From Longimicrobiales bacterium (GTDB taxonomy: Bacteria; Gemmatimonadota; Gemmatimonadetes; Longimicrobiales; Gaopeijiaceae), in assembly GCA_965219445.1 (NCBI GenBank), contig CBDCNQ010000003.1, forward strand, positions 256,001-320,000: a stretch of DNA of 64,000 bases, read 5' to 3'. Of this stretch, positions 19,065 to 32,876 are shown piece by piece (position 1 is the first letter of the stretch; every line of letters starts with the position of its first letter). The notes below the pieces were generated by a model, which had not been told where the DNA came from, searched no databases, and saw only the letters and a program-made list of their open reading frames with translations. The position numbers and the translations under genes were made by a program.

Positions 19065-20051
19065 TCAGTAGTAGACCCGGAGATCCATCCCCGCGTAGAG
19101 GCCGGCCACTTGATCGACGTATCCGTTGAAGAGCAGGGTCTCACGTCTGCGTAACTCACCGAGCCGCCGCTCCCGAGCCTGGCTCCAGCGTGGGTGGTCG
19201 ACCTCCGGATTCACGTTGGCGTAAAAGCCATACTCGTTCGAAGCCGCCCTCTTCCATGAGTTATACGGCTCTTGCTCCGTGAACGTCATGCTCACGATGG
19301 ACTTGATGCCCTTGAACCCATATTTCCACGGTATTACAAGCCGGATGGGCGCACCGTTCTGGTTAGGAATATCCCGACCGTAGACACCGGTCACCAGAAT
19401 GGTGAGCGGGTGGCGCGCCTCGTCCAGGCGCAGACCCTCCACGTAGGGCCAGTCCAGGACTCTGCTCCGCTGACCGGGCATCTGCGCGGGATCGTGGAGC
19501 GTCTTGAATTCCACATAACGAGCGCTGCCGAGCGGCTCGGCGCGGTCGATCACGTCCTTGAGCGCGAAGCCATACCAGGGAATCACCATGGACCACGCCT
19601 CTACGCACCGCATCCGGTAGACCCGATCCTCCATCCTCCCGGGCCGAATGAAGTCCTCCAGCCCGTACACGCCCGGATTGGCACACATGCCTCCCACTTC
19701 GATCGTCCAAGGTCGGGGTCTAAGCGTATGCGCGTTTTTGACCGGGTCGTCCTTCTCGGTTCCGAACTCGTAATAGTTGTTGTACGAGGTCACGTCCTCA
19801 TAGGGCGTCAACTCCTCGTCCATTTCGGAGCGCACGTTGCTCCAGTCCCTCTGGCCACCCGAGGTCTGAGCCGCCACCCGACCGGGCCCGCCCGCGAGCG
19901 CGCCCCCCACGGCGCCGCCGATCAGCGCACCCCCGGCAGCTCCCCCGAGCGCGATCCCCGCACTCTTCCCAATGAACTGGCGGCGATTGATATAGACTCG
20001 CTCTGGTGTGATGTGGGACGACGGGATGTCGTCAGGCTTTCGGATCAACAT
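19065..20051 (-). CDS. msrP: Periplasmic Mo-dependent methionine sulfoxide reductase catalytic subunit
   Basis: Tat NRRQFI; YNNYYEFG, RCVEAWSMVIPW, QNGAPIRL.PWKYGFK, EYGFYANVNP. Confidence 0.95.
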   Translation of the reverse strand: MLIRKPDDIPSSHITPERVYINRRQFIGKSAGIALGGAAGGALIGGAVGGALAGGPGRVAAQTSGGQRDWSNVRSEMDEELTPYEDVTSYNNYYEFGTEKDDPVKNAHTLRPRPWTIEVGGMCANPGVYGLEDFIRPGRMEDRVYRMRCVEAWSMVIPWYGFALKDVIDRAEPLGSARYVEFKTLHDPAQMPGQRSRVLDWPYVEGLRLDEARHPLTILVTGVYGRDIPNQNGAPIRLVIPWKYGFKGIKSIVSMTFTEQEPYNSWKRAASNEYGFYANVNPEVDHPRWSQARERRLGELRRRETLLFNGYVDQVAGLYAGMDLRVYY

Positions 20052-20371
20052 GGTCGCTCTCTCCAGTCGGGTGGGCCGCGGTTACAACCCTCTGTAGCGT
20101 GATGGCCGCGCTTCGCTTACCGTCCCAGGTTGGTGGGGCTATTCCATTCTCTTTCATTCTCTCTCGGTGTCTCAGCATCCTCGGTTTCTCTGCCTTCGCC
20201 CTACTCTAATTCCTTAGCTGCTCCGTGTCTCACGTAAGTTGGCAGAGAGGGTTAATCCCTACAACAGGCTCGTAAGTTCCAATCTTACTCGTTGGATAAT
20301 TACTCGTCCACAAAGGCGAAATGAGTGACCAGCGCTTCCTCTTCGCTTGGGCAAGAGAGTGTTCGTCAGCT

Positions 20372-21193
20372 TCAAGGTTGCAGGACCGAACCTGGGCGCA
20401 TGCCCACAACGAACCGAATCAGCAGTCCGATCACAACAGCCAGCCCGAACGTGCATACCAGGAGAGGACCGGTGGGGATGTCCGAACGAAAAGACGCCAC
20501 GACGCCGGTCACGAGCGCGACCGCACCAACGCCCCATGCGATCCAGAGCGCCACGCCGAACCGGCTCGTGAAGAGGAACGCCACCACCCCGGGAATGACG
20601 AGTGAGCTGAACACCATGAGGACTCCCGCTACCGGCACCGAGAACGAGATGACGATTCCGAAGAGTAAATAGAAGAGAAAGTCCCACGCACGGGCCCGTG
20701 GACGTTCGGCCTCTCCCAGCGATATCGACAGGAAGGGCTTCCTGAATATGAAGTAGATCACGCCGAGGACGGTGTAGACGATGGCCATGCGAATGATCTC
20801 AGGCCACCCGACCCAGATCAACGTCCCTGTCAAGGTTTCAGCGATGTGCTCGGCACCCTCCGCCGTGAACCCGGCGATCAGGATCACGGCAGCGGAGGCC
20901 ACCACGAAGGTGATGCCGATCACGGCCTCCTGGGGAACGACGGTCTCCTCGAAACGGCTGAAGGAGAAGATGAGCGCTCCTATTAGGGTAAAGCCCAGCG
21001 AAAAAGCCAGGGATAACGGCGTTTCATGGCCGACGCCCATGAGAAATCCCACCGTGGCACCGAGCGCTGCGATCTGTGCGAACGCGAGGTCGACAAAAAT
21101 CACCCCACGCGCGATGACGTGGAGGCCCAGATACGTGTGGATGGAGAGGATCACGAGGCCGGCCGCGATCGGCGGGATCATGAGATCGAGCAT
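20372..21193 (-). CDS. Metal (Zn/Mn/Fe) ABC-3 family permease
   Basis: HTYLGLHVIARGVIFVDLAFAQIAALG, EAVIGI, many TM helices. Confidence 0.85.
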   Translation of the reverse strand: MLDLMIPPIAAGLVILSIHTYLGLHVIARGVIFVDLAFAQIAALGATVGFLMGVGHETPLSLAFSLGFTLIGALIFSFSRFEETVVPQEAVIGITFVVASAAVILIAGFTAEGAEHIAETLTGTLIWVGWPEIIRMAIVYTVLGVIYFIFRKPFLSISLGEAERPRARAWDFLFYLLFGIVISFSVPVAGVLMVFSSLVIPGVVAFLFTSRFGVALWIAWGVGAVALVTGVVASFRSDIPTGPLLVCTFGLAVVIGLLIRFVVGMRPGSVLQP

Positions 21194-21197
21194 GGCC

Positions 21198-22238
21198 TCA
21201 GCCTCCGGGCCCGGCAAACGCCTGCGCCAAACCCTCAACCCAGGTGTCCACGAGCGCGAAGTAGTCGTCGACACCGGCCCTCCCCCCGGGGTTCATCGGG
21301 ACCACGACCGAGCGAGCCATCCCACGCTCGGCGACCGTCTCGACCTTTCGTTCGTCGTAATGGGAAGCGGCGAGGATCACCCGGATTCCCTCACTCGCCA
21401 TCCTTTCGAGAAGCGAGGCCACGTGTCCCGGAGTTGGAGGGATCCCGGGCCTTGCCTCGACGAACTCGGCGCAACGCACGCCGAACCGATCCTCCAAGTA
21501 TGCCCAGTTCTTGTGGTAGCAAATGATGTCACGGCCTCGGAATGCTTCCGCCACGCCGAGCCAACCACCCAACTCGGAGATGAGCGGACGGCCCTCGAAC
21601 TCTTCACCTTCCAGGAAGGAATGAAGGCTCCCTTGGAGCGCGAGCTGCTCGAGCAGCTCAGCACCCAGGAGCTCCACGAGCTGATCTCCGAACAGCCGCC
21701 GATGGATCTCCGCCGACACGCGGGCCAGTCCCGCATTCCAGACGCCCGTCCGGTCCGGCGCCACCCGCCCGAGACCCACGCTGATGTTGCGAGCTACCTG
21801 GAGGGCTCGGAGGGGGTCGGTGGTGAGGTGCGGGTTACCGAAAATATGCACGTCTCCTCCGCTCCGGTCCGCCGTTACCGGGATGTCGAGCAATTCGATT
21901 CCCGCGTAGGCCGTCACGTACCCCCTGCCCCCTTCGGCCACATCGGCGTTTCTGGCCCGGTCCAGCACGGTCGGAGCCCAGAGCTCGAGGTCGAGTCCCG
22001 TCGTGATGAACAGATCGGCTCGCCGGAGCGACAGCGCGAAGCTCGGCTTCGGACGCACGAAGTGGGCGTCCTCATTCGGTGCCGCAATGGCGCTCACGTC
22101 GACCCCCGCACCTCCGATCTTCTCGACAAGGTCTGCATAGACCGGAAGCGTCGTCACCACCCGGACGGGATCCGCTTGCGCGGCCCCCTCTCCCGCCAGC
22201 AACCCCAAGACCGTTACCGCCGCGATGATTCTGAGCAT
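21198..22238 (-). CDS. Metal ABC transporter substrate-binding protein (TroA/ZnuA family)
   Basis: Signal peptide; DAHFVRPKPS, GLDLE.W, DVH..GNPH, YHKNW. Confidence 0.9.
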   Translation of the reverse strand: MLRIIAAVTVLGLLAGEGAAQADPVRVVTTLPVYADLVEKIGGAGVDVSAIAAPNEDAHFVRPKPSFALSLRRADLFITTGLDLELWAPTVLDRARNADVAEGGRGYVTAYAGIELLDIPVTADRSGGDVHIFGNPHLTTDPLRALQVARNISVGLGRVAPDRTGVWNAGLARVSAEIHRRLFGDQLVELLGAELLEQLALQGSLHSFLEGEEFEGRPLISELGGWLGVAEAFRGRDIICYHKNWAYLEDRFGVRCAEFVEARPGIPPTPGHVASLLERMASEGIRVILAASHYDERKVETVAERGMARSVVVPMNPGGRAGVDDYFALVDTWVEGLAQAFAGPGG

Positions 22239-22251
22239 CGTGTCATCCCCC

Positions 22252-23595
22252 TCAATAAGTTTCGTGTCTATGCGGACCCATCGCGAACGTGATTCGTAGC
22301 GTGAACTGCCCCGTCGTGTTTCCAGGATTTCCCAGGACATCGTACTCCGCCCTCAGCCGCACGTACTCGCTCTGCCAATACGTCAGGGCCGGGGAGACAA
22401 GCCAAGCCGACTCGGTGGGATCCTGCGGATTTTCTACCCACTCATACCGCCCGCCTGCAATCCACTGCTGAGAAAGTTTGACCTCGGCGAGTGACCAGAC
22501 ACCCAACACGGCCTCCGGCTCGGTGAGCCCCGGAACGGCTCCTGGATCCGAGAGCATGACTCCCCCCCGCACAACGACCCCGCTGTAGAGCGATCGCTCC
22601 GGCGGAGCCCAATTGAACGACATTTCAGCTCCGAACAGGCGATTACCGTACCGTCCGGCGAGATCCTCATAATCGCCAAACAGAGCACTCACGCCCACGT
22701 CCAGATCCGTTGATGCAGAGAGCTGCCAGAACGCGTTCATATGGCCCAGATAACTGAGTCCGTGGGACTCCCCGAACAGGATCTCATTACGACTCCGGGT
22801 GACCTCCACGGTGGCCTCATACGCTCCGGATCCCCCGGTCGGAAGCAGCCAATGAACCGAAGCCCCGTCTTGGGCCAAGGACTCCTCTCCAATAAAGGTG
22901 AGGTGCGGGAGTGACCGGCTCTGAAACTGAATCGCATGCGAGTGCCAACGGTTGAGCTGCCCGAATTGCTGGAAGAACCGCCCGACTTTGAGGCCGACAC
23001 CGCCCGGTAATGCGACCCACTCGACGTACCCCTCCTCCACCGCAACGCCGCCCCCTTCGCCTTCCTCTCCTCCGTCGGGAAACACTTCGATCCGACCCCC
23101 CTCCTCTTCTGCGGCAAGGAACACCCTGGCCCGGGTGAAGGGGTCGAGCGCCGATATGAACGCCAACTCGAACTCGCGAGGAATGAAGTTGTTGGTGCCT
23201 GGGTTCTCACTCTGGATGGACGCATAGACGTCCCCATTCAGGCTGATCTCCGGGTTCAATGCCTGCAGCGACCGCGAGCGACCAACGAACTCCTGGTCGC
23301 CCTGTGCCTGGGCCGTCGTGTCGGCTGCAGCACCTCCCGCGGCGGCCCGGGCCGCCGCCCGGAGCCGGGCGAGCTCGTCCGTCGTCTCCAACTGATCCCC
23401 TACCTCCGGCGCCGCCGGCCCACTCGCCACGACGGCCCCGAGGCTGTCGAACTGCGCCCGCAACAGCTCCAGTTCAGCCCGGAGAGAATCGAGCTGCGCG
23501 GACGGCACGTCCTGCGCATGCGCCCGGCCCGGGCCCACTGCGAGAGCCCCCATCAGGGCGAAAGCGCCGAAGCTTCCGGGTAATTTTTTTCGCAT
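22252..23595 (-). CDS. Outer-membrane beta-barrel of the metal-uptake operon
   Basis: Signal peptide, coiled segment, LNPEIS, E.EL...DP, N.WHSH, C-terminal GPHRHETY. Confidence 0.65.
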   Translation of the reverse strand: MRKKLPGSFGAFALMGALAVGPGRAHAQDVPSAQLDSLRAELELLRAQFDSLGAVVASGPAAPEVGDQLETTDELARLRAAARAAAGGAAADTTAQAQGDQEFVGRSRSLQALNPEISLNGDVYASIQSENPGTNNFIPREFELAFISALDPFTRARVFLAAEEEGGRIEVFPDGGEEGEGGGVAVEEGYVEWVALPGGVGLKVGRFFQQFGQLNRWHSHAIQFQSRSLPHLTFIGEESLAQDGASVHWLLPTGGSGAYEATVEVTRSRNEILFGESHGLSYLGHMNAFWQLSASTDLDVGVSALFGDYEDLAGRYGNRLFGAEMSFNWAPPERSLYSGVVVRGGVMLSDPGAVPGLTEPEAVLGVWSLAEVKLSQQWIAGGRYEWVENPQDPTESAWLVSPALTYWQSEYVRLRAEYDVLGNPGNTTGQFTLRITFAMGPHRHETY

Positions 23596-23738
23596 GGTAC
23601 TCCTGAGAATCCATGTCCTCGGGCGTGTTCAACCAGAAGACACGAGCGGGAGAGCCCTGGAGCGATCCTTGGGTTAACCACCGAAATCGCTGGGCTCAAC
23701 GTGAAAGAGTGGCCCTCTCTGTTACGCGGAGGGCGTTC

Positions 23739-24074
23739 TCAGGGGGTGTGTGGTGGGGCCCTGGATTTCGTGCGGACGATACGGCGGAACTCGACCGGGA
23801 TATCGTGAGGGATCGAGACGGCCTCGCCCGGCGTAGGCGGAAACACCTGCAACGGAATCGATGAGTCCGTGGACCAGCCTTGTTTTCCGAACTGGATACA
23901 GAGGGTGTGGTCGTGGTGGGCGTGTGTGCACGCCTCGTGGTGCCCAGAGGCGATTACGGTTTCCGACCCCAGCAGTTCTCGATCCAGTGACGGGATGATC
24001 GCGCCCAGAGCGACCATCCAGACCGCCAAACCGGCATTGAAACGATCGCTCATGCGCCTTCTCATCCACAGCAT
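23739..24074 (-). CDS. His/Cys-rich upstream ORF with C-terminal RAPP motif (putative metal-responsive arrest peptide; alternative starts 24065/24053)
   Basis: Hydrophobic N-terminus, GHHEACTHAHHDHTLC, ends KSRAPPHTP*; first gene of the metal operon. Confidence 0.65.
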   Translation of the reverse strand: MLWMRRRMSDRFNAGLAVWMVALGAIIPSLDRELLGSETVIASGHHEACTHAHHDHTLCIQFGKQGWSTDSSIPLQVFPPTPGEAVSIPHDIPVEFRRIVRTKSRAPPHTP

Positions 24075-24081
24075 GCGTACA

Positions 24082-24110
24082 ACCTTAGGCTCAGCCCTAC
24101 AGGGTGTCAA
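24082..24110 (-). promoter_or_regulatory. Sigma70-type promoter for the RAPP uORF and metal operon
   Basis: Minus strand TTGACA (24110-24105)-N17-TAAGGT (24087-24082); predicted +1 close to the ATG at 24074. Confidence 0.55.
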
Positions 24111-24300
24111 TCGGCCTCGTCCCCCAGCGAGGGCTTGCGGAGCTAGGATCAAAGGCATCATAGGGGCATGGCGACCGCTACCGGTACCGATCAGCAGCTA
24201 AGCAGCCCGAAGACGAAGAGGCGTTCTCCTCCGGGAGCGGGTGCGCGTTCATCATTATTCGCGCAAGCAAGCAACCCAACCCGTCCTACCCAAGAGGAGG

Positions 24301-25362
24301 ATGCCCATGGAGAGGTATATCGGACTCGACGCACACGCGTCGAGCTGCACGCTGGGGATTGTAGGCCCCAGCGGCAAGCGCTTGGGCTCGCAGGTGGTGG
24401 AGACGAACGCGCGGGCGCTGATCGAGGTGCTGCGAGGGATTCCGAGGAACCGGCACTTATGCCTGGAAGAAGGGACGCTGTCGGGGTGGCTGTACGAGGT
24501 GCTGAAGCCGCACGTGGAGGAGCTGACGGTGGCGGGGGTCGGCAAGAGCCGGGGCCCGAAGACCGACAAGCTGGACGCGTTTGCCCTGGCGGAGAAGCTG
24601 CGGATCGGATCACTGGAGACGACGGTCTACAAGAACCGGGGCCAGTTCAGGCGGCTGGGGGAACGGGCGAAGAGCTACGACTTCTTGGTCGGCGACACGG
24701 TGCGGGTGAAGAACCGGCTCAAGAGCGTGCTGCGCTCGAGAGGAGTGGCCTACGGCGCGGGGCGCTCGGTCTACTTAAAGCGCGACCGGGAGGAGTGGTT
24801 GGCCAAGCTGCCGGAAGCGAGCAGGACGACGGCCGGGTTGCTGTACGAGGAGCACGACGCACTCGTGGCATTGAGGGCGAAGGCCGAGAAGGCGTTGCTG
24901 GCGGAAGCACGCAAGCATCGAGAGTGGCATGTGCTGAAGACGTGCCCGGGTCTGGGTCCGATCCGGACGGCGGAGCTCCTGCCGGTGGTGGTGACGCCGT
25001 ACCGGTTCCAGAGCCGGAGCAGGTTCTGGGCGTACTGCGGACTGGGCGTCGTGATGCGGAGCTCGTCGGACTGGGTGCGGGGTCCGGGTGGGCGGTGGGT
25101 AAGGGAACCGGTACAGCAGACGCGGGGGCTGAATCGGAACTTCAACCACACGCTGAAGCGTGTGTTCAAGGGCGCAGCGACGACGGTGATCGGTCGGGCC
25201 GAGGACGAGCCCTTGTACCGCCACTACGAGCGACTCCTGGAGGGGGGCACGAAGCCGAATCTGGCGAAGCTGACGATCGCGCGTCAGCTCGCCTCGATCG
25301 TGCTAGCGGTGTGGCGCACGGGCGAAGCGTACGACCCCAAGAGACTGGAAGCGACGGAGTAA
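24301..25362 (+). CDS. IS110-family DEDD transposase/recombinase
   Basis: YIGLDAH, CLEEG, KTDKLDA (DEDD), PGLGP, YCGL....RSS serine region, ARQL; AGGAGG RBS. Confidence 0.92.
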   Translation: MPMERYIGLDAHASSCTLGIVGPSGKRLGSQVVETNARALIEVLRGIPRNRHLCLEEGTLSGWLYEVLKPHVEELTVAGVGKSRGPKTDKLDAFALAEKLRIGSLETTVYKNRGQFRRLGERAKSYDFLVGDTVRVKNRLKSVLRSRGVAYGAGRSVYLKRDREEWLAKLPEASRTTAGLLYEEHDALVALRAKAEKALLAEARKHREWHVLKTCPGLGPIRTAELLPVVVTPYRFQSRSRFWAYCGLGVVMRSSSDWVRGPGGRWVREPVQQTRGLNRNFNHTLKRVFKGAATTVIGRAEDEPLYRHYERLLEGGTKPNLAKLTIARQLASIVLAVWRTGEAYDPKRLEATE

Positions 25363-25439
25363 ACCGGGCCGGGATCGGCGAGCGTGGGGTCGAAAGCGGT
25401 CACAACATGGGGTCCGACGAAACGGAAGCGAACCGGTTA

Positions 25440-25575
25440 CAGGGGACAGCATCCATACACACCGTGGGCCGGGGCAGAGAGCCCAAGCCCCCACTCAAAG
25501 GCTATGCACCCCTGGAGAGCCGAACGAAGCGATGGGCCACAGAGTCCCAGATAGAAGGATGGTTCCCGCTCCAGA
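25440..25575 (+). ncRNA. Putative bridge/seekRNA core of the IS110-family element (true ends unknown)
   Basis: Two stem-internal loop-stem modules; loops contain TACACACC and TCAAAGG (target matches) and ATAGAAGG (donor match). Confidence 0.75.
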
Positions 25576-25847
25576 GCGGAGAACGCGACGGCTGTGAACG
25601 TCTTCCGGACTGCGATGCGGACCCTGCGAGCGCACCCCTCCCCACCCTGAGTCGTCGACCGGGCAATCCAAACCATGCGGACGCCGACGGTCAAAAAATG
25701 AGCCGACGGCGCGTGGGGAAGGTGCGTCTTGACCGCCAGCCCCATAGAAGGGTGTGTAAAAAAAGAGGCGACGTACCTTTCCGCTAGGTAGTAAGAAGTT
25801 AACCAGCGAATCCCGGGTGAGCGCCCGGGGGAAAGGAACGATGCCTC

Positions 25848-27092
25848 GTGAGGAAGAATATGGTGGGACCCGAGAGTGAGTCCAGCACGCCGACGTGGGA
25901 GTGCTTGGAAGCGCTGGTTCGTGAGAAGGCCCAGGAGATGGTCCAGCGGATTCTGGAGGAGGAAGTGACGGAGTTGCTCGGCCGGGAGAAGTCGGAGCGG
26001 AAGACGGTCGTAGACCCGGCGCCAGGCTACCGCAACGGCTACGGCAAGGCTCGGCGGCTGGCGATGAGCTCGGGCACGATCATGCTCCGACGGCCCCGGG
26101 TTCGAGGCATTGAGGAGCGGTTCGAGAGTCGGGTGTTGCCGTTGTTCGCACGACGGACGAAGGAGGTGGGTGCTCTGCTTCCGGAGCTGTATCTGCACGG
26201 GCTGGCGGAGGGAGACTTCGAGCTGGCGATGCGGGGCCTGCTGGGCGAGGGGGCCCCGTTGTCGAAGTCTTCGATTTGGCGGCTGCGGGCGGGATGGACA
26301 AGGAAATTCGAGGAATGGTCGAAGCGCTCGCTGGCCGACCGTGAGGTCGTCTACGTCTGGGCGGACGGGATCTACGTGAAGGCGGGGCTCGAGCGGGACA
26401 AGGCAGCGCTGCTGGTGGTTCTCGGTGCGATGCGAGATGGTACGAAGGAGGTGTTGGCCCTGAGATCGGGCTACCGAGAGTCGGTCGAGTCCTGGTCCGA
26501 GGTGTTGCGGGATCTGAAGGCACGCGGCATCGAGGCGCCCCGGCTTTTGATGGCGGACGGCAACGCGGCGATCTGGGGCGCAGTACGGCAGGTATGGCCT
26601 GAGGCGGGCGAGCAACGGTGCTGGAACCACAAGATGAGGAACGTGCTGGACCGGCTGCCTCAGCGGGAGCAGAGCGAGGCGAAGGACCTTCTCAGGACCG
26701 TGGTCTACGCACCGAGGCGGTCCGAGGCGCTGAAGGCCCGTGAGGCGTTCGCCAGGCGCTACAGACCGTGGTATCCGAAGGCGGTGGATGTACTCGAGGA
26801 CGACTGGGAGCGGATGGTGGCGTTCTACGACTTCCCCGAGGACCACTGGAAGCATCTACGCACGACGAACGTGGTCGAGAGCCCCTTTGCCGCAGTACGG
26901 CTCAGGACAACGGCGGCGAAGCGCTTCAAGCGGGTCGAGAGCGCTACGGCGCTGATCTGGAAGCTGCTCTTGGTGGCGGAGAAGCGCTTCAGAAGGCTCG
27001 ACGCTCCTCACCTCCTCAAGGACGTATTTGAAGGAAGAAAGTTCGAAGACGGAAAGCCCGTCTCAACCCAACAGCGGAAAAACGCCGCCTGA
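25848..27092 (+). CDS. IS256-family (mutator) DDE transposase
   Basis: YRNGY, LYLHGL, VWADGIY, ESVESW, ADG, QRCWNHKMRN, RTTNVVES. Confidence 0.95.
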   Translation: MRKNMVGPESESSTPTWECLEALVREKAQEMVQRILEEEVTELLGREKSERKTVVDPAPGYRNGYGKARRLAMSSGTIMLRRPRVRGIEERFESRVLPLFARRTKEVGALLPELYLHGLAEGDFELAMRGLLGEGAPLSKSSIWRLRAGWTRKFEEWSKRSLADREVVYVWADGIYVKAGLERDKAALLVVLGAMRDGTKEVLALRSGYRESVESWSEVLRDLKARGIEAPRLLMADGNAAIWGAVRQVWPEAGEQRCWNHKMRNVLDRLPQREQSEAKDLLRTVVYAPRRSEALKAREAFARRYRPWYPKAVDVLEDDWERMVAFYDFPEDHWKHLRTTNVVESPFAAVRLRTTAAKRFKRVESATALIWKLLLVAEKRFRRLDAPHLLKDVFEGRKFEDGKPVSTQQRKNAA

Positions 27093-27198
27093 AACATTTA
27101 CACACCTATTGACCCAACCTCGGGCTTGCGAACGCGATGGGTCTGCACAGAGGTTGTGTTCCCTCACGAGCAGGCTACCGAGAACCAGGAGTCGATCG

Positions 27199-28452
27199 AT
27201 GGACAACATCTCAAGACGTGCGATGTTAGGAGCCGCGGGAGGGCTGATCGCAGGGGGCCTGCTGAAGACTCAGGCCGATGCACTCACAGTGGGGGAGGCA
27301 GCCACCGGCCTGCAAACCGCACCGGCGGATCCCACGAAGATGCTCGGTGCGCCAACCAGCGTCCTCGGCCAACGGGCACCGGCGGAACAGCCCCGTCGCG
27401 TCATGGGCAGCCCGGCGACGACAGCATCCTCCAGAACCCCGATCGAGCAACTTCGGGGCATCATCACTCCGGCGGATCTCCACTTTGAGCGACACCACGC
27501 CGGCGTTCCAGCCATCGATCGGGATCGTTACGAACTCTTGATCCATGGGATGGTGGATCGGCCGATGACATTCACGCTCGACGACCTGATGCGCTTTCCC
27601 TCCGAGTCTCGGATTTGTTTCGTGGAATGCTCCGGGAACGGCGGCGCCGCCTATAACCGGAACGCCGCTCGGGAACGCACGCCCAGCCAGATCGATGGCC
27701 TGTTCAGTACGAGCGAATGGACCGGTGTGGCTCTGACCACTCTTCTGCGTGAAGTGGGCGTCAGCCGGGAGGCGAGTTGGTTGCTGGCGGAGGGTGGGGA
27801 TGCGGCACTCATGTCCCGCAGCATCCCGGTAGAGAAGGCTCTCGACGACGCCATGATCGCGTACGGACAGAACGGCGAGGCGATCCGTCCGGAGCAGGGC
27901 TTTCCCGCGCGGCTGCTGCTTCCCGGCTGGGAGGGCAACTCCCAAGTCAAATGGATCCGCCGCCTCGAGGCGTCCGACCGGCCCTCGATGACGCGCGACG
28001 AAACCTCCAAGTACACGGACCCCCTCGCCGACGGGACGGCGCGACAGTTCAGCCTGGTTATGGATGCGAAGTCGACCATCACGTTTCCCGCCTTCCCATT
28101 TGTACTTCCGGAGCGGGGCTGGTGGGAGATCAGCGGACTCGCGTGGAGCGGACGGGGCCGCATCGCTCGTGTGGAGGTGACGACGGACGGAGGGCGCACG
28201 TGGGTGCCCGCTCAACTTCAGGATCCGGTGCTCTCGAAGTGCGCCACGCGCTTCCGGCACATCTGGAACTGGGACGGCGGAGAGGCTCTTCTCATGAGCC
28301 GCGCGATCGACGAGACCGGCTACGTGCAGCCGGATCTGGAGACACAGATAGCGGCCCGAGGTGAGGGCAGCTCGTACCACTACAACACGATCCGGCCGTG
28401 GAAGATCGAAGCCGATGGGCGCGTGTTCTTCGCACAAGGAGGGGCGCAATGA
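27199..28452 (+). CDS. soxC: Sulfite oxidase-family molybdoprotein, SoxC-like, Tat-exported
   Basis: SRRAML Tat; GIITP..LHFERHH.G, ECSGN, YGQNGE.IRPEQGFP.RL..PGWEG, GLAWSGRG, SRAIDETGYVQP. Confidence 0.85.
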   Translation: MDNISRRAMLGAAGGLIAGGLLKTQADALTVGEAATGLQTAPADPTKMLGAPTSVLGQRAPAEQPRRVMGSPATTASSRTPIEQLRGIITPADLHFERHHAGVPAIDRDRYELLIHGMVDRPMTFTLDDLMRFPSESRICFVECSGNGGAAYNRNAARERTPSQIDGLFSTSEWTGVALTTLLREVGVSREASWLLAEGGDAALMSRSIPVEKALDDAMIAYGQNGEAIRPEQGFPARLLLPGWEGNSQVKWIRRLEASDRPSMTRDETSKYTDPLADGTARQFSLVMDAKSTITFPAFPFVLPERGWWEISGLAWSGRGRIARVEVTTDGGRTWVPAQLQDPVLSKCATRFRHIWNWDGGEALLMSRAIDETGYVQPDLETQIAARGEGSSYHYNTIRPWKIEADGRVFFAQGGAQ

Positions 28453-29066
28453 GCCGGCGGAGCCGTGCCGGGGCCTTTTCCGGCCTGTTGGCGACAACCC
28501 TCTCGTTATACGGATGCGTGCCGGACGCGCCGAGCGGAGAGACCAGCACCGTGGTGTCAGGTACCACGGAGTGGCCAGGCTCTTTCGCCATCGGCCGAGA
28601 CGCCACCCCAGCCGAGATCGCAGAGCTGAACATCGACTTCGGACCGGATGGAGCAGACGCTCCACCGGGGAGTGGCTCAGTCGCCGAGGGCAAGGTGGTC
28701 TACGACAGAAACTGCATCGTCTGCCACGGCCTCACGGGGCGAGAGGGTCCGAACGCTCAGCTCGTCGGCCGCGAGCCTCGTGACGGGTTTCCGTTCGGCG
28801 AAACCCGAGGCATCGTCAAGACGGTCGGAAACTACTGGCCCTACGCCACGACCGTGTTCGATTACGTGAACCGCACGATGCCACTCTCGTCCCCCGGGTC
28901 GCTCACGGCCGATGAAGTGTACGCGGTCTCGGCGTATATCCTCTTTCTCAATGAGATCATCCCGGAGAACGCGGTCATGAATGCCGAGACCCTACCAGCG
29001 GTGGTCATGCCCGCCCGGGACCGATTCGTGCCGGACGATCGCGTGGGTGGGCCGGAGGTCAGGTAA
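28449..29066 (+). CDS. soxD: SoxD-like monoheme cytochrome c (possible lipoprotein)
   Basis: PPGSGSVAEG, CIVCHG, TVGNYWPYATT.FDY..R.MP, EVYAV; overlaps the soxC stop. Confidence 0.85.
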   Translation: MSRRSRAGAFSGLLATTLSLYGCVPDAPSGETSTVVSGTTEWPGSFAIGRDATPAEIAELNIDFGPDGADAPPGSGSVAEGKVVYDRNCIVCHGLTGREGPNAQLVGREPRDGFPFGETRGIVKTVGNYWPYATTVFDYVNRTMPLSSPGSLTADEVYAVSAYILFLNEIIPENAVMNAETLPAVVMPARDRFVPDDRVGGPEVR

Positions 29067-29198
29067 GACCCGCTTCACCTTGACGGCCTCGAACCTGCAA
29101 CCTACGGTAGCGTTCACGTTTCCGTCCTCCCCGATGACGATCCTTCGGGCATATGCGGACGGGACGATCCATGAAGTTCCCCACAGGAGATCATTTTC

Positions 29199-30026
29199 AT
29201 GAGGGTTGTTTCGACTTTGCTCATGCTCGGCGTCATCACGGCGGCGGCAGTTACGGACGCAGCCGACGCCCAGACGAGATATGTGCGCTACGAGCAGGCT
29301 GGAGACATTTCGTGGGGCGAATTGGACGGCTCCACGATTCGCCAACTCAGCGAGGCTCCCTACCTCGGGGGCGTACGTACAGGACGGACGACTACGGAGT
29401 CCGCCGTGACGATGAAAGCCCCGGTCGATCCGAACCTCGTCTTCATGACCGCCTTCAACTTCCGCAGCCACATCACTGGCGATCCGGCGGAGTATCCGGG
29501 TCTGTTCATCGTGCCCCCGGGCTCGATCATCGGTCCTGGTGAAAACATCGTGCGGCCTGCGGCATCTCAGAATCTTCACTATGAAGCAGAGATGGTGGTC
29601 GTGATCGGCAAGCGTGCCGAGAACGTGAATCCGGAGGAGGCGCCGGAGTATGTTTTCGGCGTGGCGGCTGGGAACGACGTCAGCGAGCGCGACTGGCAGG
29701 CGAATGACATCCAGTGGGTCCGTGCAAAGGGCAGCCGGTCGTTCAACGCCGTGGGCCCCGTCTTGGTGGAGGGGTTGGACTACTCCAACCTCCAGATCGA
29801 GGGACGCCTCAACGGCGAGGTACGTCAGGGGGAGAATAGCGCCGACCTGATTTTCAACATGCACCATATGGTCAGCTACATCTCGAAATACTTCACGCTC
29901 GAGCCCGGCGATCTGATCTGGTCCGGTACTATGGGCACCACCCAGGCGATGGAGCCAGGTGATGTCTACGAGGTGGAAATTGAAGGCGTCGGTGTCCTGC
30001 GGAACCAGCTCGTTCAAGGCCACTGA
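29199..30026 (+). CDS. Fumarylacetoacetate hydrolase family protein with signal peptide
   Basis: HYEAE..VVIGK, NDVSERDWQ, RAKG, TLEPGDLI.SGT; N-terminal ADA-Q signal. Confidence 0.85.
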   Translation: MRVVSTLLMLGVITAAAVTDAADAQTRYVRYEQAGDISWGELDGSTIRQLSEAPYLGGVRTGRTTTESAVTMKAPVDPNLVFMTAFNFRSHITGDPAEYPGLFIVPPGSIIGPGENIVRPAASQNLHYEAEMVVVIGKRAENVNPEEAPEYVFGVAAGNDVSERDWQANDIQWVRAKGSRSFNAVGPVLVEGLDYSNLQIEGRLNGEVRQGENSADLIFNMHHMVSYISKYFTLEPGDLIWSGTMGTTQAMEPGDVYEVEIEGVGVLRNQLVQGH

Positions 30027-30061
30027 ATGCGACGCGGGTCAGCGTCATTCTAGAGGAGGGG

Positions 30062-30814
30062 GTGACCCGCCAGCCCAACTTCCTGCTCCTTCAGGTCCGC
30101 AATCCGGACGACCCGATGAGGAAGCACGAAATTCAGTGCTTTTCCCGTTCGTTCCGCTGCGATGAAGATCGGATTCGCGTCTTCGATCTCCTGAGCGGGG
30201 TGCCCTCCCAGCGCGAACTAACCGAAGCCGACGCGGTCCTCCTGGGTGGAAGCGGCAGTTACTCTGTCGCCAGAGGCGGCCCGTGGCTTCCCGCGGCGCT
30301 CGAAACCATGCGTCAGCTATACGAAACGTCCAAACCGACGTTCGCTTCTTGCTGGGGGTTTCAAGCCATGGCCAGAGCCATGGGTGGGGAGGTGGTCACG
30401 GACCGCAGTCGAGCGGAAGTCGGAACGCTCTGGATGAAGCTGACGCCCGATGGTAAGAAGGACCCCGTGTTCGGCCCTCTCGGCGACCGTTTCCAGGTCC
30501 AGATCGGCCACGAGGATATCGTTACCAGGCTCCCTGAGGGAGCGAGGCTTCTGGCCTCGAGCCCCAGCGTGGAGATCGAAGCGTATTGTTTCCATGGCAA
30601 GCCCATCTACTGCACACAGTTCCATCCGGAGCTGGACCGTGCCGGCATCATCACGCGAATCGCACAGTACCCGGATTATCTGCCCCTCACCGGGCACGCC
30701 ACGCTCGAAGATTTTTCGGCCGCCACACCGGAGACGCCAAAAGCCGAGGCGATTCTCCGGAGGTTCGTAACGGTGGCGCTGCAGAGTAGCTCTCTTGACC
30801 CTGATAGCGTGTAG
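30062..30814 (+). CDS. Class I glutamine amidotransferase-like protein
   Basis: GGSG, SCWGFQ nucleophile, H.D.V, QFHPE. Confidence 0.85.
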   Translation: MTRQPNFLLLQVRNPDDPMRKHEIQCFSRSFRCDEDRIRVFDLLSGVPSQRELTEADAVLLGGSGSYSVARGGPWLPAALETMRQLYETSKPTFASCWGFQAMARAMGGEVVTDRSRAEVGTLWMKLTPDGKKDPVFGPLGDRFQVQIGHEDIVTRLPEGARLLASSPSVEIEAYCFHGKPIYCTQFHPELDRAGIITRIAQYPDYLPLTGHATLEDFSAATPETPKAEAILRRFVTVALQSSSLDPDSV

Positions 30815-30866
30815 GCCGCTAGAGCGAGTTATGGCCTGGCGCTCGAATGACTGCCGCGTAGCCGAG

Positions 30867-32876
30867 TCAGTAGGCTCGTGCGGCAGCGATTTTTCGGATG
30901 TCCTTCAAGGCGTAGGCGACGACGAATAGGGCTCCCAGCCCCCCCACCAGAAAGGACGGGTAGAACGCGGTGGCGGCTCCTGCCAGAAGCAGGATTCGAC
31001 CTCCTGCGCTCAGATGACGGCTCAGCGACTGGCCCTCCAGCACCGCGGCGAACGCTGCTAGCGCAACCATGGACATCGTCGCCTTCCCGAGCACCACCGG
31101 CCAGGCACCCCCCAAGGCGAGCTCGGGATGCACCACCATGAGGATGGGAATGAGATAGAGGCCCTTGGCGTACTTCCACGCCTGAAGGCCAGTGCGCATG
31201 GGATCGGCTCCGGCTACGCCTGCGGCTGCGTACGCAGCGAGGCAGACGGGGGGCGTGACGTTGGAGTCCTGGGAGTACCAGAACACGAGCAAGTGGGCGA
31301 TCAAGACAGGAAGACCGAAATCATTGATCAGTACCGGGCCGGCGAGGACGATGAGAACGACGTAGCTGGCGGTCACGGGAAGTCCCATCCCAAGGACGAG
31401 ACTCGCCAGAAGCAGCAGTATCAGGACAAGAAAGAGATTCCCTTGGGAAAGAGAAAGCATGAGACCCGAAAATTTGAGGCCCAGACCCGTGAGGCCGACG
31501 ATGCCCACGATGATTCCCGCCACGGCGCAGGCCAGGCTCACTGGAAGGGTATTTCGGCCCGCGAGGACGAAGGCATCCACACCGCGGACGATCCCACCGC
31601 CGACCCAGCCCGCCAGGGGGCCCTGAGCCGCCACTTCCGGGTTCGAGGCCCTTGGATTTCCCGGCATGGTCCGGTTCCATGCGGCTCGCGAGGCCGCCAG
31701 TGCCGCCACTGCCATACACGAAAGAAAGCCGACCCGGGCAACCGAAAAATCCATGAGCAGAGCGGCCACCAGAGCCACTAGAGCCATAAGGAAGTGCCAG
31801 CCCTTGGCCAGCGTGGTCCCGAACCGGGGGAGCTCGGAAGCGGGCAGGCCCTCGAGGTTCCTCGCGACCGCCACCAGGTGCACGAAGACGAACACTGTTC
31901 CCATGTAGAGAATCGCCGGAATGAGCGCCGCCTTGACGACGTCGAGATAAGCCAGACCGGTATATTCGGCAATCAAGAACGCTCCCGCCCCCATGATCGG
32001 GGGAAGGATCTGACCCCCGGTACTTGCAGCCGCTTCGATACCGCCGGCCTCCTCAGCGCGGTAGCCGACCTTCTTCATGAGGGGAATGGTGAACGCCCCG
32101 CTGGTCACGACGTTGGCGATGGCGCTCCCCGACACGGATCCCAGTGCGGAAGACGCCAGAACCGCAGCTTTCGCGGGCCCTCCGCGCTGTCTTCCGGTAA
32201 GCGCATACGCGAGATCGATAAAGAACTGGCCCGCGCCCGTGACCTCCAGGAGCGCCCCGAATAAGATGAAGACGAAAACGAACGAGGCGGCCACACCCAG
32301 AGGGATCCCGTATATCCCCTCCTGACCCAGATAAAGCTGTCCCACGAGCCGTCCGGTGCTGTACCCTCCATGCCGAAGAACTCCCGGGAGGAACGGACCC
32401 GCGTAACCGTAGCCGATGAAACAGGCCGCGATGAACGAAATAGGCCACCCCAACGCCCTGCGGCTCGCCTCGAGGAGCGTGACCACCGCTACCGTGCCTG
32501 CGAGAACGTCGGTGCCGCTCGGGGCCCCTGCCCGGCTCACGATGGCGTCTAGGTTGAGCGTGAGATAGAGGGCTGCGAAGATGGAGCCAGCAATGAGAAC
32601 GGTGTCCACCGTCCATGCCATGCCACTTGGGATTCTCGGCTCCCTACGACGCTTTGTCGAAAAGATGCGACCCTTCGTCGGAAACAGGAGAAAGGCCAAG
32701 ACCTGAACAACCGCGAGATGGAACGCCCTCTCATAGAAGAGTCCGATGGGCCGGACGCCGGATATGTAGAGTTGGAATAACGAGAGGGCGATCGCAAGAA
32801 CGACGAAGGTCGTTGCGGAAAAGGTAGGGAGACCCAGGTTCCTCCTCGGGATCGAGGGCTCACCAGTGGGGCTCAC
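30867..32876 (-). CDS. TRAP transporter fused 4TM/12TM permease
   Basis: GGPAKAAV, SGSAIANV, EAAASTGGQILPPIMGAGAF, LGMGLP, VTPPV. Confidence 0.92.
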   Translation of the reverse strand: MSPTGEPSIPRRNLGLPTFSATTFVVLAIALSLFQLYISGVRPIGLFYERAFHLAVVQVLAFLLFPTKGRIFSTKRRREPRIPSGMAWTVDTVLIAGSIFAALYLTLNLDAIVSRAGAPSGTDVLAGTVAVVTLLEASRRALGWPISFIAACFIGYGYAGPFLPGVLRHGGYSTGRLVGQLYLGQEGIYGIPLGVAASFVFVFILFGALLEVTGAGQFFIDLAYALTGRQRGGPAKAAVLASSALGSVSGSAIANVVTSGAFTIPLMKKVGYRAEEAGGIEAAASTGGQILPPIMGAGAFLIAEYTGLAYLDVVKAALIPAILYMGTVFVFVHLVAVARNLEGLPASELPRFGTTLAKGWHFLMALVALVAALLMDFSVARVGFLSCMAVAALAASRAAWNRTMPGNPRASNPEVAAQGPLAGWVGGGIVRGVDAFVLAGRNTLPVSLACAVAGIIVGIVGLTGLGLKFSGLMLSLSQGNLFLVLILLLLASLVLGMGLPVTASYVVLIVLAGPVLINDFGLPVLIAHLLVFWYSQDSNVTPPVCLAAYAAAGVAGADPMRTGLQAWKYAKGLYLIPILMVVHPELALGGAWPVVLGKATMSMVALAAFAAVLEGQSLSRHLSAGGRILLLAGAATAFYPSFLVGGLGALFVVAYALKDIRKIAAARAY

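Follow-up and report, generated by a model that had tools for sequence, protein, structure and literature searches.

That insertion sequences can be directed by a bridge RNA or seekRNA, and that the ends of other mobile elements can serve as targets, is already known. IS4321 and IS5075 reportedly target the inverted repeats (IRs) of Tn21-family transposons, as Partridge and Hall are said to have described in 2003. RNA-guided targeting of another insertion sequence is described for ISEc21, which is aimed at a conserved region of IS3-family transposase genes (PMC11187229, from the part of the paper available to us). For IS621, the core belongs to every guide pairing according to the available part of PMC11208160.

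Here we examine a 64,000-nucleotide stretch of a bacterial genome (the window; the genome is denoted G000), for which an earlier note had proposed an RNA guide aimed at another mobile element. Guide-flank covariation, structure covariation and uninterrupted IS256 IRs all support that proposal. The segment 25440-25514 is very probably the target-binding loop of a two-loop bridge/seekRNA located behind a DEDD gene of IS110/IS1111 type; its guides match both halves of an IS256 left IR, and it likely steers the recombinase by base pairing. As far as its sequence tells, the window element most likely adds one more member to a known class of RNA-guided recombinases. What the sequence itself shows are the ends of the element, its AG core and target, the matches of the guides to target and donor, the covariation and the conserved stems.

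Results

A nested pair of insertion sequences

An IS256 element spans 24140-27121 and is flanked by 9-bp duplications. Its 25-bp left IR is interrupted after base 15 by a 1596-bp element. The features of the nested pair are as follows.

24131-24139, + strand: IS256 target-site duplication, left copy, 9 bp (right copy 27122-27130)
24140-24154, + strand: outer 15 bp of the IS256 left IR, comprising the left target and the AG core (24153-24154); the IR is uninterrupted in relatives
24155-25750, + strand: IS110-superfamily insertion sequence, 1596 bp with one copy of the AG core (25749-25750)
24160-24173, + strand: imperfect subterminal inverted repeat, left arm, 7 nt inside the end with the core counted
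25734-25745: right arm of the subterminal inverted repeat, 3 nt in from the end
25751-25760, + strand: inner 10 bp of the IS256 left IR, the right target
25848-27092, + strand: IS256-family transposase, 414 aa (NF033543, 295 bits against a cut-off of 150; PF00872)
27097-27121, + strand: IS256 right IR, 25 bp, not a target of the window element

In a pattern search of 151 family genomes, the uninterrupted IR GAGCTAGGATCAAAGGGTGTGTAAAAA was the commonest form among the matches listed; 16 of 150 family genomes had a match to the search, or 17 with G000 included. The presence of this uninterrupted IR in relatives fixes the target as TCAA-AG-GGTGTGTA. Both window junctions have AAG in common; some relatives show TAG at the left, AAG at the right, or (L007) an A following the right junction, and these narrow the core to AG. 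The terminal extensions are 7 nt on the left (core counted) and 3 nt on the right, or 6 nt in the L059 subclade. The subterminal repeat reaches 12 matches at the cost of two 1-nt gaps, and some relatives have 7 perfect nt at best. Terminal IRs are absent, a short core is common to both junctions, and site and orientation are fixed, a combination that marks the IS110 superfamily. The non-coding region 3' of the tnp stop measures 388 nt, against 152 nt 5' of the start. On one side of the nested pair (20372-23595) lies what we take, from the translations by eye, to be a metal ABC-transporter-like cluster; the other side (27199-29066) presumably holds a molybdopterin sulfite-oxidase/SoxC-type subunit-like gene and a c-type cytochrome, again judged by eye.

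The recombinase

The interrupting element carries a single transposase gene of the following description.

24307-25362, + strand: DEDD recombinase/transposase, 351 aa (PF01548, the N-terminal DEDD domain, and PF02371, the C-terminal Transposase_20 domain, both above cut-off; conservation; profile match to the IS621 and ISCro4 structures)

The key residues are D8, E54/E55, D87, D90 and S253. Among homologs, conservation is 103/103 for each of D8, E54 and E55, 102/103 for D87 and 102/102 for D90. S253 is kept in 100 of 103; it aligns with the serine of the IS621 catalytic motif and is followed by S, not the usual G, the family consensus of this C-terminal motif being GLGIVMRSSSD. The NCBIfam IS110 model NF033542 scores 112 bits, below its cut-off of 140. 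A PDB search with the single protein sequence gave no match, and only a profile reached IS621 and ISCro4 (PDB 8wt6 and 9t56; IS621 at E 1.8e-14). The best annotated plasmid matches are 23-27% identical, and the clade comprises 3579 proteins at E <= 1e-20 among 8000 scored. A TIGR-Tas system was considered and rejected, with NF052498 at 57 bits against a cut-off of 100 and no array among the repeats of 20000-31000. By these sequence marks, the window element is a member of the IS110 superfamily.

Two tandem loops and a junction promoter

The non-coding region downstream of the gene contains the loop that the earlier note had singled out, and within it the two guides.

25440-25514, + strand: predicted target-binding loop of the bridge/seekRNA (fold, family consensus, compensatory changes)
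25456-25464, + strand: right target guide (25456-63 complementary to GGTGTGTA, 25751-58)
25493-25501, + strand: left target guide (matches at 7 of 9 nt in the IS256 site and at 9 of 9 in the off-target site)

The loop begins 78 nt 3' of the stop of the 351-aa ORF, with the IS256 transposase gene downstream. It had been drawn with outer stems CAGGGG (25440-45)/CCCCTG (25509-14) and GCAT/ATGC and an inner stem GTGGG/CCCAC, and all of these strings are present. Across 50 homologs both outer stems are right, being paired in 94.0% and 99.5% of cells. The inner helix exists as well, but in a register off by two from GTGGG/CCCAC (63.6% of cells paired); the family consensus is GGGC 25466-69/GCCC 25487-90, where the helix reaches 88.5% and 6 of 8 pairs show a compensatory change. 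A fold of 25430-25525 (96 nt) gave a z of -2.94, with 3 of 200 shuffles equally good.

As had been noted, TACACACC (25456-63) is the exact reverse complement of the right flank (25751-58). TCAAAGG at 25495-501 is likewise identical to 24149-55, but the core at its end had been drawn too wide: the core is AG, so the word comprises the left target, the core and one extra G. The guides are best defined as the variable 9-mers 25456-64 and 25493-501, the guide columns being the variable ones within an invariant scaffold. The right guide lies upstream (25456-63 before 25495-501), an order that the parser imposes on all 106 loops it recovered and that covariation validates.

A second loop and a candidate promoter, neither of which the earlier note contained, complete the layout.

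25519-25563, + strand: predicted donor-binding loop (stems 25519-22/25560-63 and 25534-37/25544-47)
25729-25734, + strand: predicted -35 hexamer TTGACC of a circle-junction promoter
24156-24161, + strand: predicted -10 hexamer CATCAT of the circle-junction promoter, 17 nt from the TTGA hexamer once the ends are joined

RNAalifold on 50 non-redundant sequences yields two internal loops in tandem, with 96.1% of cells paired (slid controls 35-52%) and a compensatory change in 12 of 25 pairs; the stems stay paired via G-U and compensatory changes. The left donor guide ATAGAAG (25551-57) repeats the right end of the element together with the core, an identity that the donor guide keeps in 56 of 59 loci, covering five sequence types. 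For a right donor guide, the 5' strand of the second loop pairs with the left end at only 4 of 5 positions, and this strand is unchanged where the left end has changed (L206).

Among 31 distinct end pairs, the spacing from the TTG hexamer to CATCAT is 17 in 25, 16 in five and 15 in one. A promoter scan of the linear locus found no site, as expected if the promoter arises only upon circularisation. A hybrid promoter running from the right-end -35 into IS256 was rejected on the sequence, which has no -10 at 17 nt. Rfam returned nothing at E <= 1 within 24000-27200. In one RNA run (share 0.05), contigs cover tnp 24390-24675 and 34 nt of IS256.

Copies in the genome

The element ends have 25 left-end and 24 right-end matches in G000. 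At one base and in one orientation, 23 of the 25 left junctions follow an IS256 left-IR half; of the other two, one is off-target and one is a short remnant of a relative that has a different target. None of the 25 lies in a right IR, although 28 right IRs are intact, and the right IR mismatches the left guide adjacent to the core. The earlier statement that the guides match the IS256 IR needs to be limited to the left IR, the only one targeted here. After the right end, 21 of 23 two-ended copies continue with GGTGTGTA; all 23 carry the same guides, in 22 element haplotypes.

Could these copies stem from one old insertion into an IS256 end, multiplied by composite movement of IS256 or by recombination among copies, with no targeting? 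Of the 19 occupied loci for which both flanks are available, 7 have composite units surrounded by 8-9 bp IS256-type duplications, and some flanks match those of other loci, which implies recombination among copies. Yet 12 identical IS256 bodies carry 12 different guest haplotypes, which argues for separate insertions and not composite spread; one guest haplotype is present in two different hosts, and hosts lie from 0 to 278 nt differences apart. Further afield, L136, a relative with 69% identity, occupies the same base in the left IR of another IS256, and its guides match; the off-target copy agrees with the guides at a site where there is no IS256. Multiplication of a single insertion would also leave the guide-flank covariation described below unexplained. 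We regard this explanation as largely refuted and improbable, while recombination among copies could contribute to the haplotype diversity.

RNA-guided insertion, the reading that we prefer, extends to the off-target copy (G000:C2:336726), which lies in a non-IS gene. There the left guide matches at 9 of 9 positions, against 7 of 9 in IS256, and the right guide at six consecutive nt; the fit to both guides means that guide sequence, not IS256 context, predicts the site. The copy interrupts a minus-strand ORF in frame; removal of the insert (1590 nt) restores the reading frame here, as it restores the 25-bp IR in IS256. The ORF has a weak SIR2_2 match, below cut-off. At this locus (L207:1045-3681; G000:C2:336244-338880) a phage-type integrase adjoins the SIR2-like gene, which from its sequence is possibly an inactivated defence gene.

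Several further arrangements were seen. The remnant (L208:985-1010; G000:C2:661602) is a short left end of a relative, with a left flank of the GGATAG type that prevails in the clade. Ten flank cross-matches between G000 loci point to extensive rearrangement between IS256 copies, or to misassembly. Directly behind one copy, a further insert of ~1.9 kb (G000:C4:1173265 to 1169753) splits the right target half (GGTG/TGTA) and is a third element nested in the same IR. A 3' module consisting of the tnp end, guide RNA and right end is tandemly repeated, with two copies at G000:C5:1611142-1613294 and three at 458-nt spacing in G069 (L005/L212). The joint of each module falls on an AG inside tnp (window positions 25243 and 25270), which suggests mini-circles made by the recombinase.

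Covariation and natural reprogramming

The homolog set comprises 158 loci at 29-99% identity from Gemmatimonadota, Myxococcota, Acidobacteriota and metagenomes. The parser yielded 106 loops, 82 left junctions and 81 right junctions; unparsed loci (shortened or too diverged) were left out before the covariation tests. The earlier note had named covariation as the check to be made, and both guides do track their own flanks across homologs. The left guide scores 4.49 matches to its own flank over 6 variable positions and 2.97 +/- 0.14 when shuffled (45 distinct guide pairs, 61 loci), or 4.24 against 2.10 over 21 distinct guide cores. The right guide matches at 5.44 of 7, against 3.16 +/- 0.17 (43 distinct guides, 72 loci), scored as the best of three registers in own and shuffled pairings alike. 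For the left guide, the guide cores and the right guide, none of 10,000 permutations reached the own-flank score, nulls that overstate significance since the homologs are kin. A GGATAG-type guide is common to many homologs in this set. Misfits are L135, L167 and L029 on the left, and on the right L046, L065 and others, at 2-4 of 7.

Individual relatives illustrate natural changes of target. L009 (95% identical in amino acids) has an altered left guide and sits in a right IR, and all five left IRs of its genome are vacant and intact. L203 and L206 (77%, outside the test set) match their own flanks at 9 of 9 and 8 of 9. Their left guide, CATCATAGG, equals the left-end sequence of the window element, and both copies (G131) were seen in other DNA; judged by this guide, sister elements are conceivable targets. 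Many relatives at 53-85% identity have in common a guide pair of the GGATAG/GAAATCCAA-like kind (L011, L121, L123, L133, L147, L185, L200 and others), and by eye the flanks listed for GGATAG-type relatives contain no common element.

Forcing L136 and L135 together with the window's clade was rejected (p-AU 4.8e-07) in a careful tree of 28 proteins, whose rows were picked after a first tree; an 87-protein tree is a quick version in which the frameshifted L015 and L036 give long branches. Relatives between L136 and the window's clade carry other guides. These sequences indicate that targeting of the IS256 IR originated at least twice in the clade. Guide transfer may be the source of the L136 guides; against this, the L136 scaffold resembles that of its own neighbours.

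The register of the right guide varies. Of the 43 distinct right guides, 20 fit unambiguously (>= 8/9, next best <= 6): four start at the first core base, seven at the second and eight just past the core, and one (L053) is a parsing offset. The register of the off-target copy differs from that of the on-target copies. A literature search on guide register turned up a preprint (10.64898/2026.03.19.712850) in whose available part 'register' concerns a target hairpin.

The matches might instead act via DNA or protein contacts, with the recombinase reading the IR or being recruited by the IS256 transposase and the RNA fold being incidental. Target DNA structure adds specificity for ISPpu10 (same preprint, available part), so that extra determinants are conceivable. 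Such a reading is nonetheless hard to reconcile with stems that keep pairing through G-U and compensatory changes, with near-identical proteins that switch target when only the guides differ (L009 and the window element), or with the finding that RNA originating in the non-coding region is essential in every relative tested in the available part of PMC11187229, and we consider it highly improbable. A chance match in a GC-rich non-coding region has a negligible probability and is refuted by covariation: the words are short (7 and 8 nt) and TCAAAGG alone occurs 299 times in the genome, but both words appeared in just 12 of 200,000 first-order Markov simulations of the 3' non-coding region, taken as 386 nt (a post hoc, indicative count that demanded neither order nor loop position), and they keep a fixed loop position and the right order, with covariation in dozens of differently targeted homologs.

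Vacant IS256 ends

The perfect 14-nt target has no vacant occurrence in G000, and all five vacant left IRs of this genome are altered in guide-matched bases. Three of them match the dominant IS256 apart from a 1-nt lesion next to the AG core, which differs among the three (G000:C4:199262, C4:1221680 and C5:267938; L094, L105). Each lesion reads as a left-junction prefix plus a right-junction suffix, and contigs from two runs of one study (X1, X3) confirmed one of them to the letter. A polishing artefact was rejected as the cause at the one of the three sites checked. Judged by their letters, the lesions are possible scars of imprecise guest loss. At the right junction of L002 an additional AAG forms another imprecise joint at the core.

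In another genome, G159, AG is absent at the core position in 10 of 10 vacant IRs, and in G156 one of three vacant sites is intact. In G158 the element is present once, with an open frame and identical guides, and of 45 vacant IS256 left IRs 44 offer a perfect target, so a guide match does not guarantee occupation. In some genomes the IR variants may be ordinary divergence.

Tentatively, and with considerable doubt, these observations can be drawn together as an RNA-guided contest of two insertion sequences. The clade of the window element would form a separate branch among bridge recombinases, marked by a two-loop RNA in the right end, an AG core and an SS motif. Its right guide, fixed at 9 nt, would pair in three registers relative to the core, and at least two reprogrammings onto IS256 ends would have taken place; every intact IS256 left end in G000 would be occupied, and imprecise loss would leave 1-nt core scars that render IS256 ends immune to re-insertion.

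Discussion

Proposed mechanism

The mechanism that we propose is modelled on ISEc11, ISKpn4 and ISPa11 (PMC11187229) and on IS621 (PMC11208160, PMC13626964), as presented in the available parts of these papers. By analogy with characterised relatives, the element would leave by a cut-out or copy-out route (10.1101/2025.10.25.684509, available part) and circularise, and its joined ends would form the promoter TTGACC-17-CATCAT. The transcript would be trimmed to a short RNA and bound by the recombinase. On the left of the core the 3' guide would pair to the bottom strand, and on its right the 5' guide to the top strand; the element's own junction would occupy the second loop, and strand exchange at AG would insert the circle. 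An IS256 copy whose left IR is split into 15 + 10 bp by 1.6 kb would likely be immobilised, and the guest would gain a multi-copy, non-essential landing site. An RNA-guided element would thereby parasitise, and probably silence, the dominant IS256 of its host genome.

With its divergent, widespread and naturally much-reprogrammed members (at least 43 distinct right guides in the loci studied), the clade would enlarge the set of programmable recombinases. Because both loops, the core and the ends are mapped, it is directly testable. If confirmed, the AG core and the freedom of the right guide from covering the core would offer more options for design.

Comparison with known systems

Our literature search found no paper on an IS110 element targeting IS256 ends, and PMC13604230 does not mention IS256; ISfinder, TnPedia, subscription journals and the supplementary target tables of PMC11208160 and PMC11187229 lay outside the search and may list such a target. 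Where IS4321 and IS5075 have Tn21-family IRs as targets, the target of the window element is the IS256 IR. ISEc21 differs from it in an upstream non-coding region, the opposite guide order and a coding-sequence target (PMC11187229). As far as the available part of PMC12288879 goes, ISPpu9 shares the AG dinucleotide at its boundaries, and its chromosomal modules of a tnp 3' fragment plus small-RNA region are like the tandem 3' modules found here; it differs in its REP targets, in having no junction promoter and in a downstream Ssr9 that is a separate small RNA.

With IS621 and ISCro4 (Durrant et al. 2024, PMC11208160, available part; PDB 8wt6, 9t56) the window element shares two simple internal loops, predicted here, for target and donor, a 2-nt core, and a DEDD domain plus a putative catalytic-serine domain. 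Sequence similarity is remote, and a single-sequence search finds nothing. The window RNA, unlike theirs, sits in the right end and has its guides in the opposite order, and the core is AG, not CT; and whereas the IS621 pairings include the core, the right guide of the window clade usually starts after the core or half-way through it, in three registers.

In layout, with a 3' non-coding region in which the top-strand complement lies 5' of the bottom-strand match, the window element agrees with the IS1111-type seekRNA elements ISEc11, ISKpn4, ISPa11 and ISPst6 (Siddiquee et al. 2024, PMC11187229, available part). In these elements, as in ours, the non-coding region is downstream of tnp, the guides follow that order, the extensions are 7 nt on the left and 3 nt on the right, a junction promoter is present (predicted in ours), relatives are naturally reprogrammed and the DEDD protein has ~350 aa. 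The differences are an imperfect subterminal repeat with two gaps in 14 nt, where IS1111 elements have 11-13 bp perfect or near-perfect; the clade motif GLG-----SS in place of GL-P----S(T)G; a clear second loop whose donor guide covaries with the right end; and the IS256 IR as target. Since it departs from the subterminal-repeat and GL-P----S(T)G marks, we do not file the element in the IS1111 group, a placement judged from marks and not from a reference tree. In its 3' RNA, guide order and 7+3 ends, the window element, as read from its sequence, is one that works like the IS1111 group.
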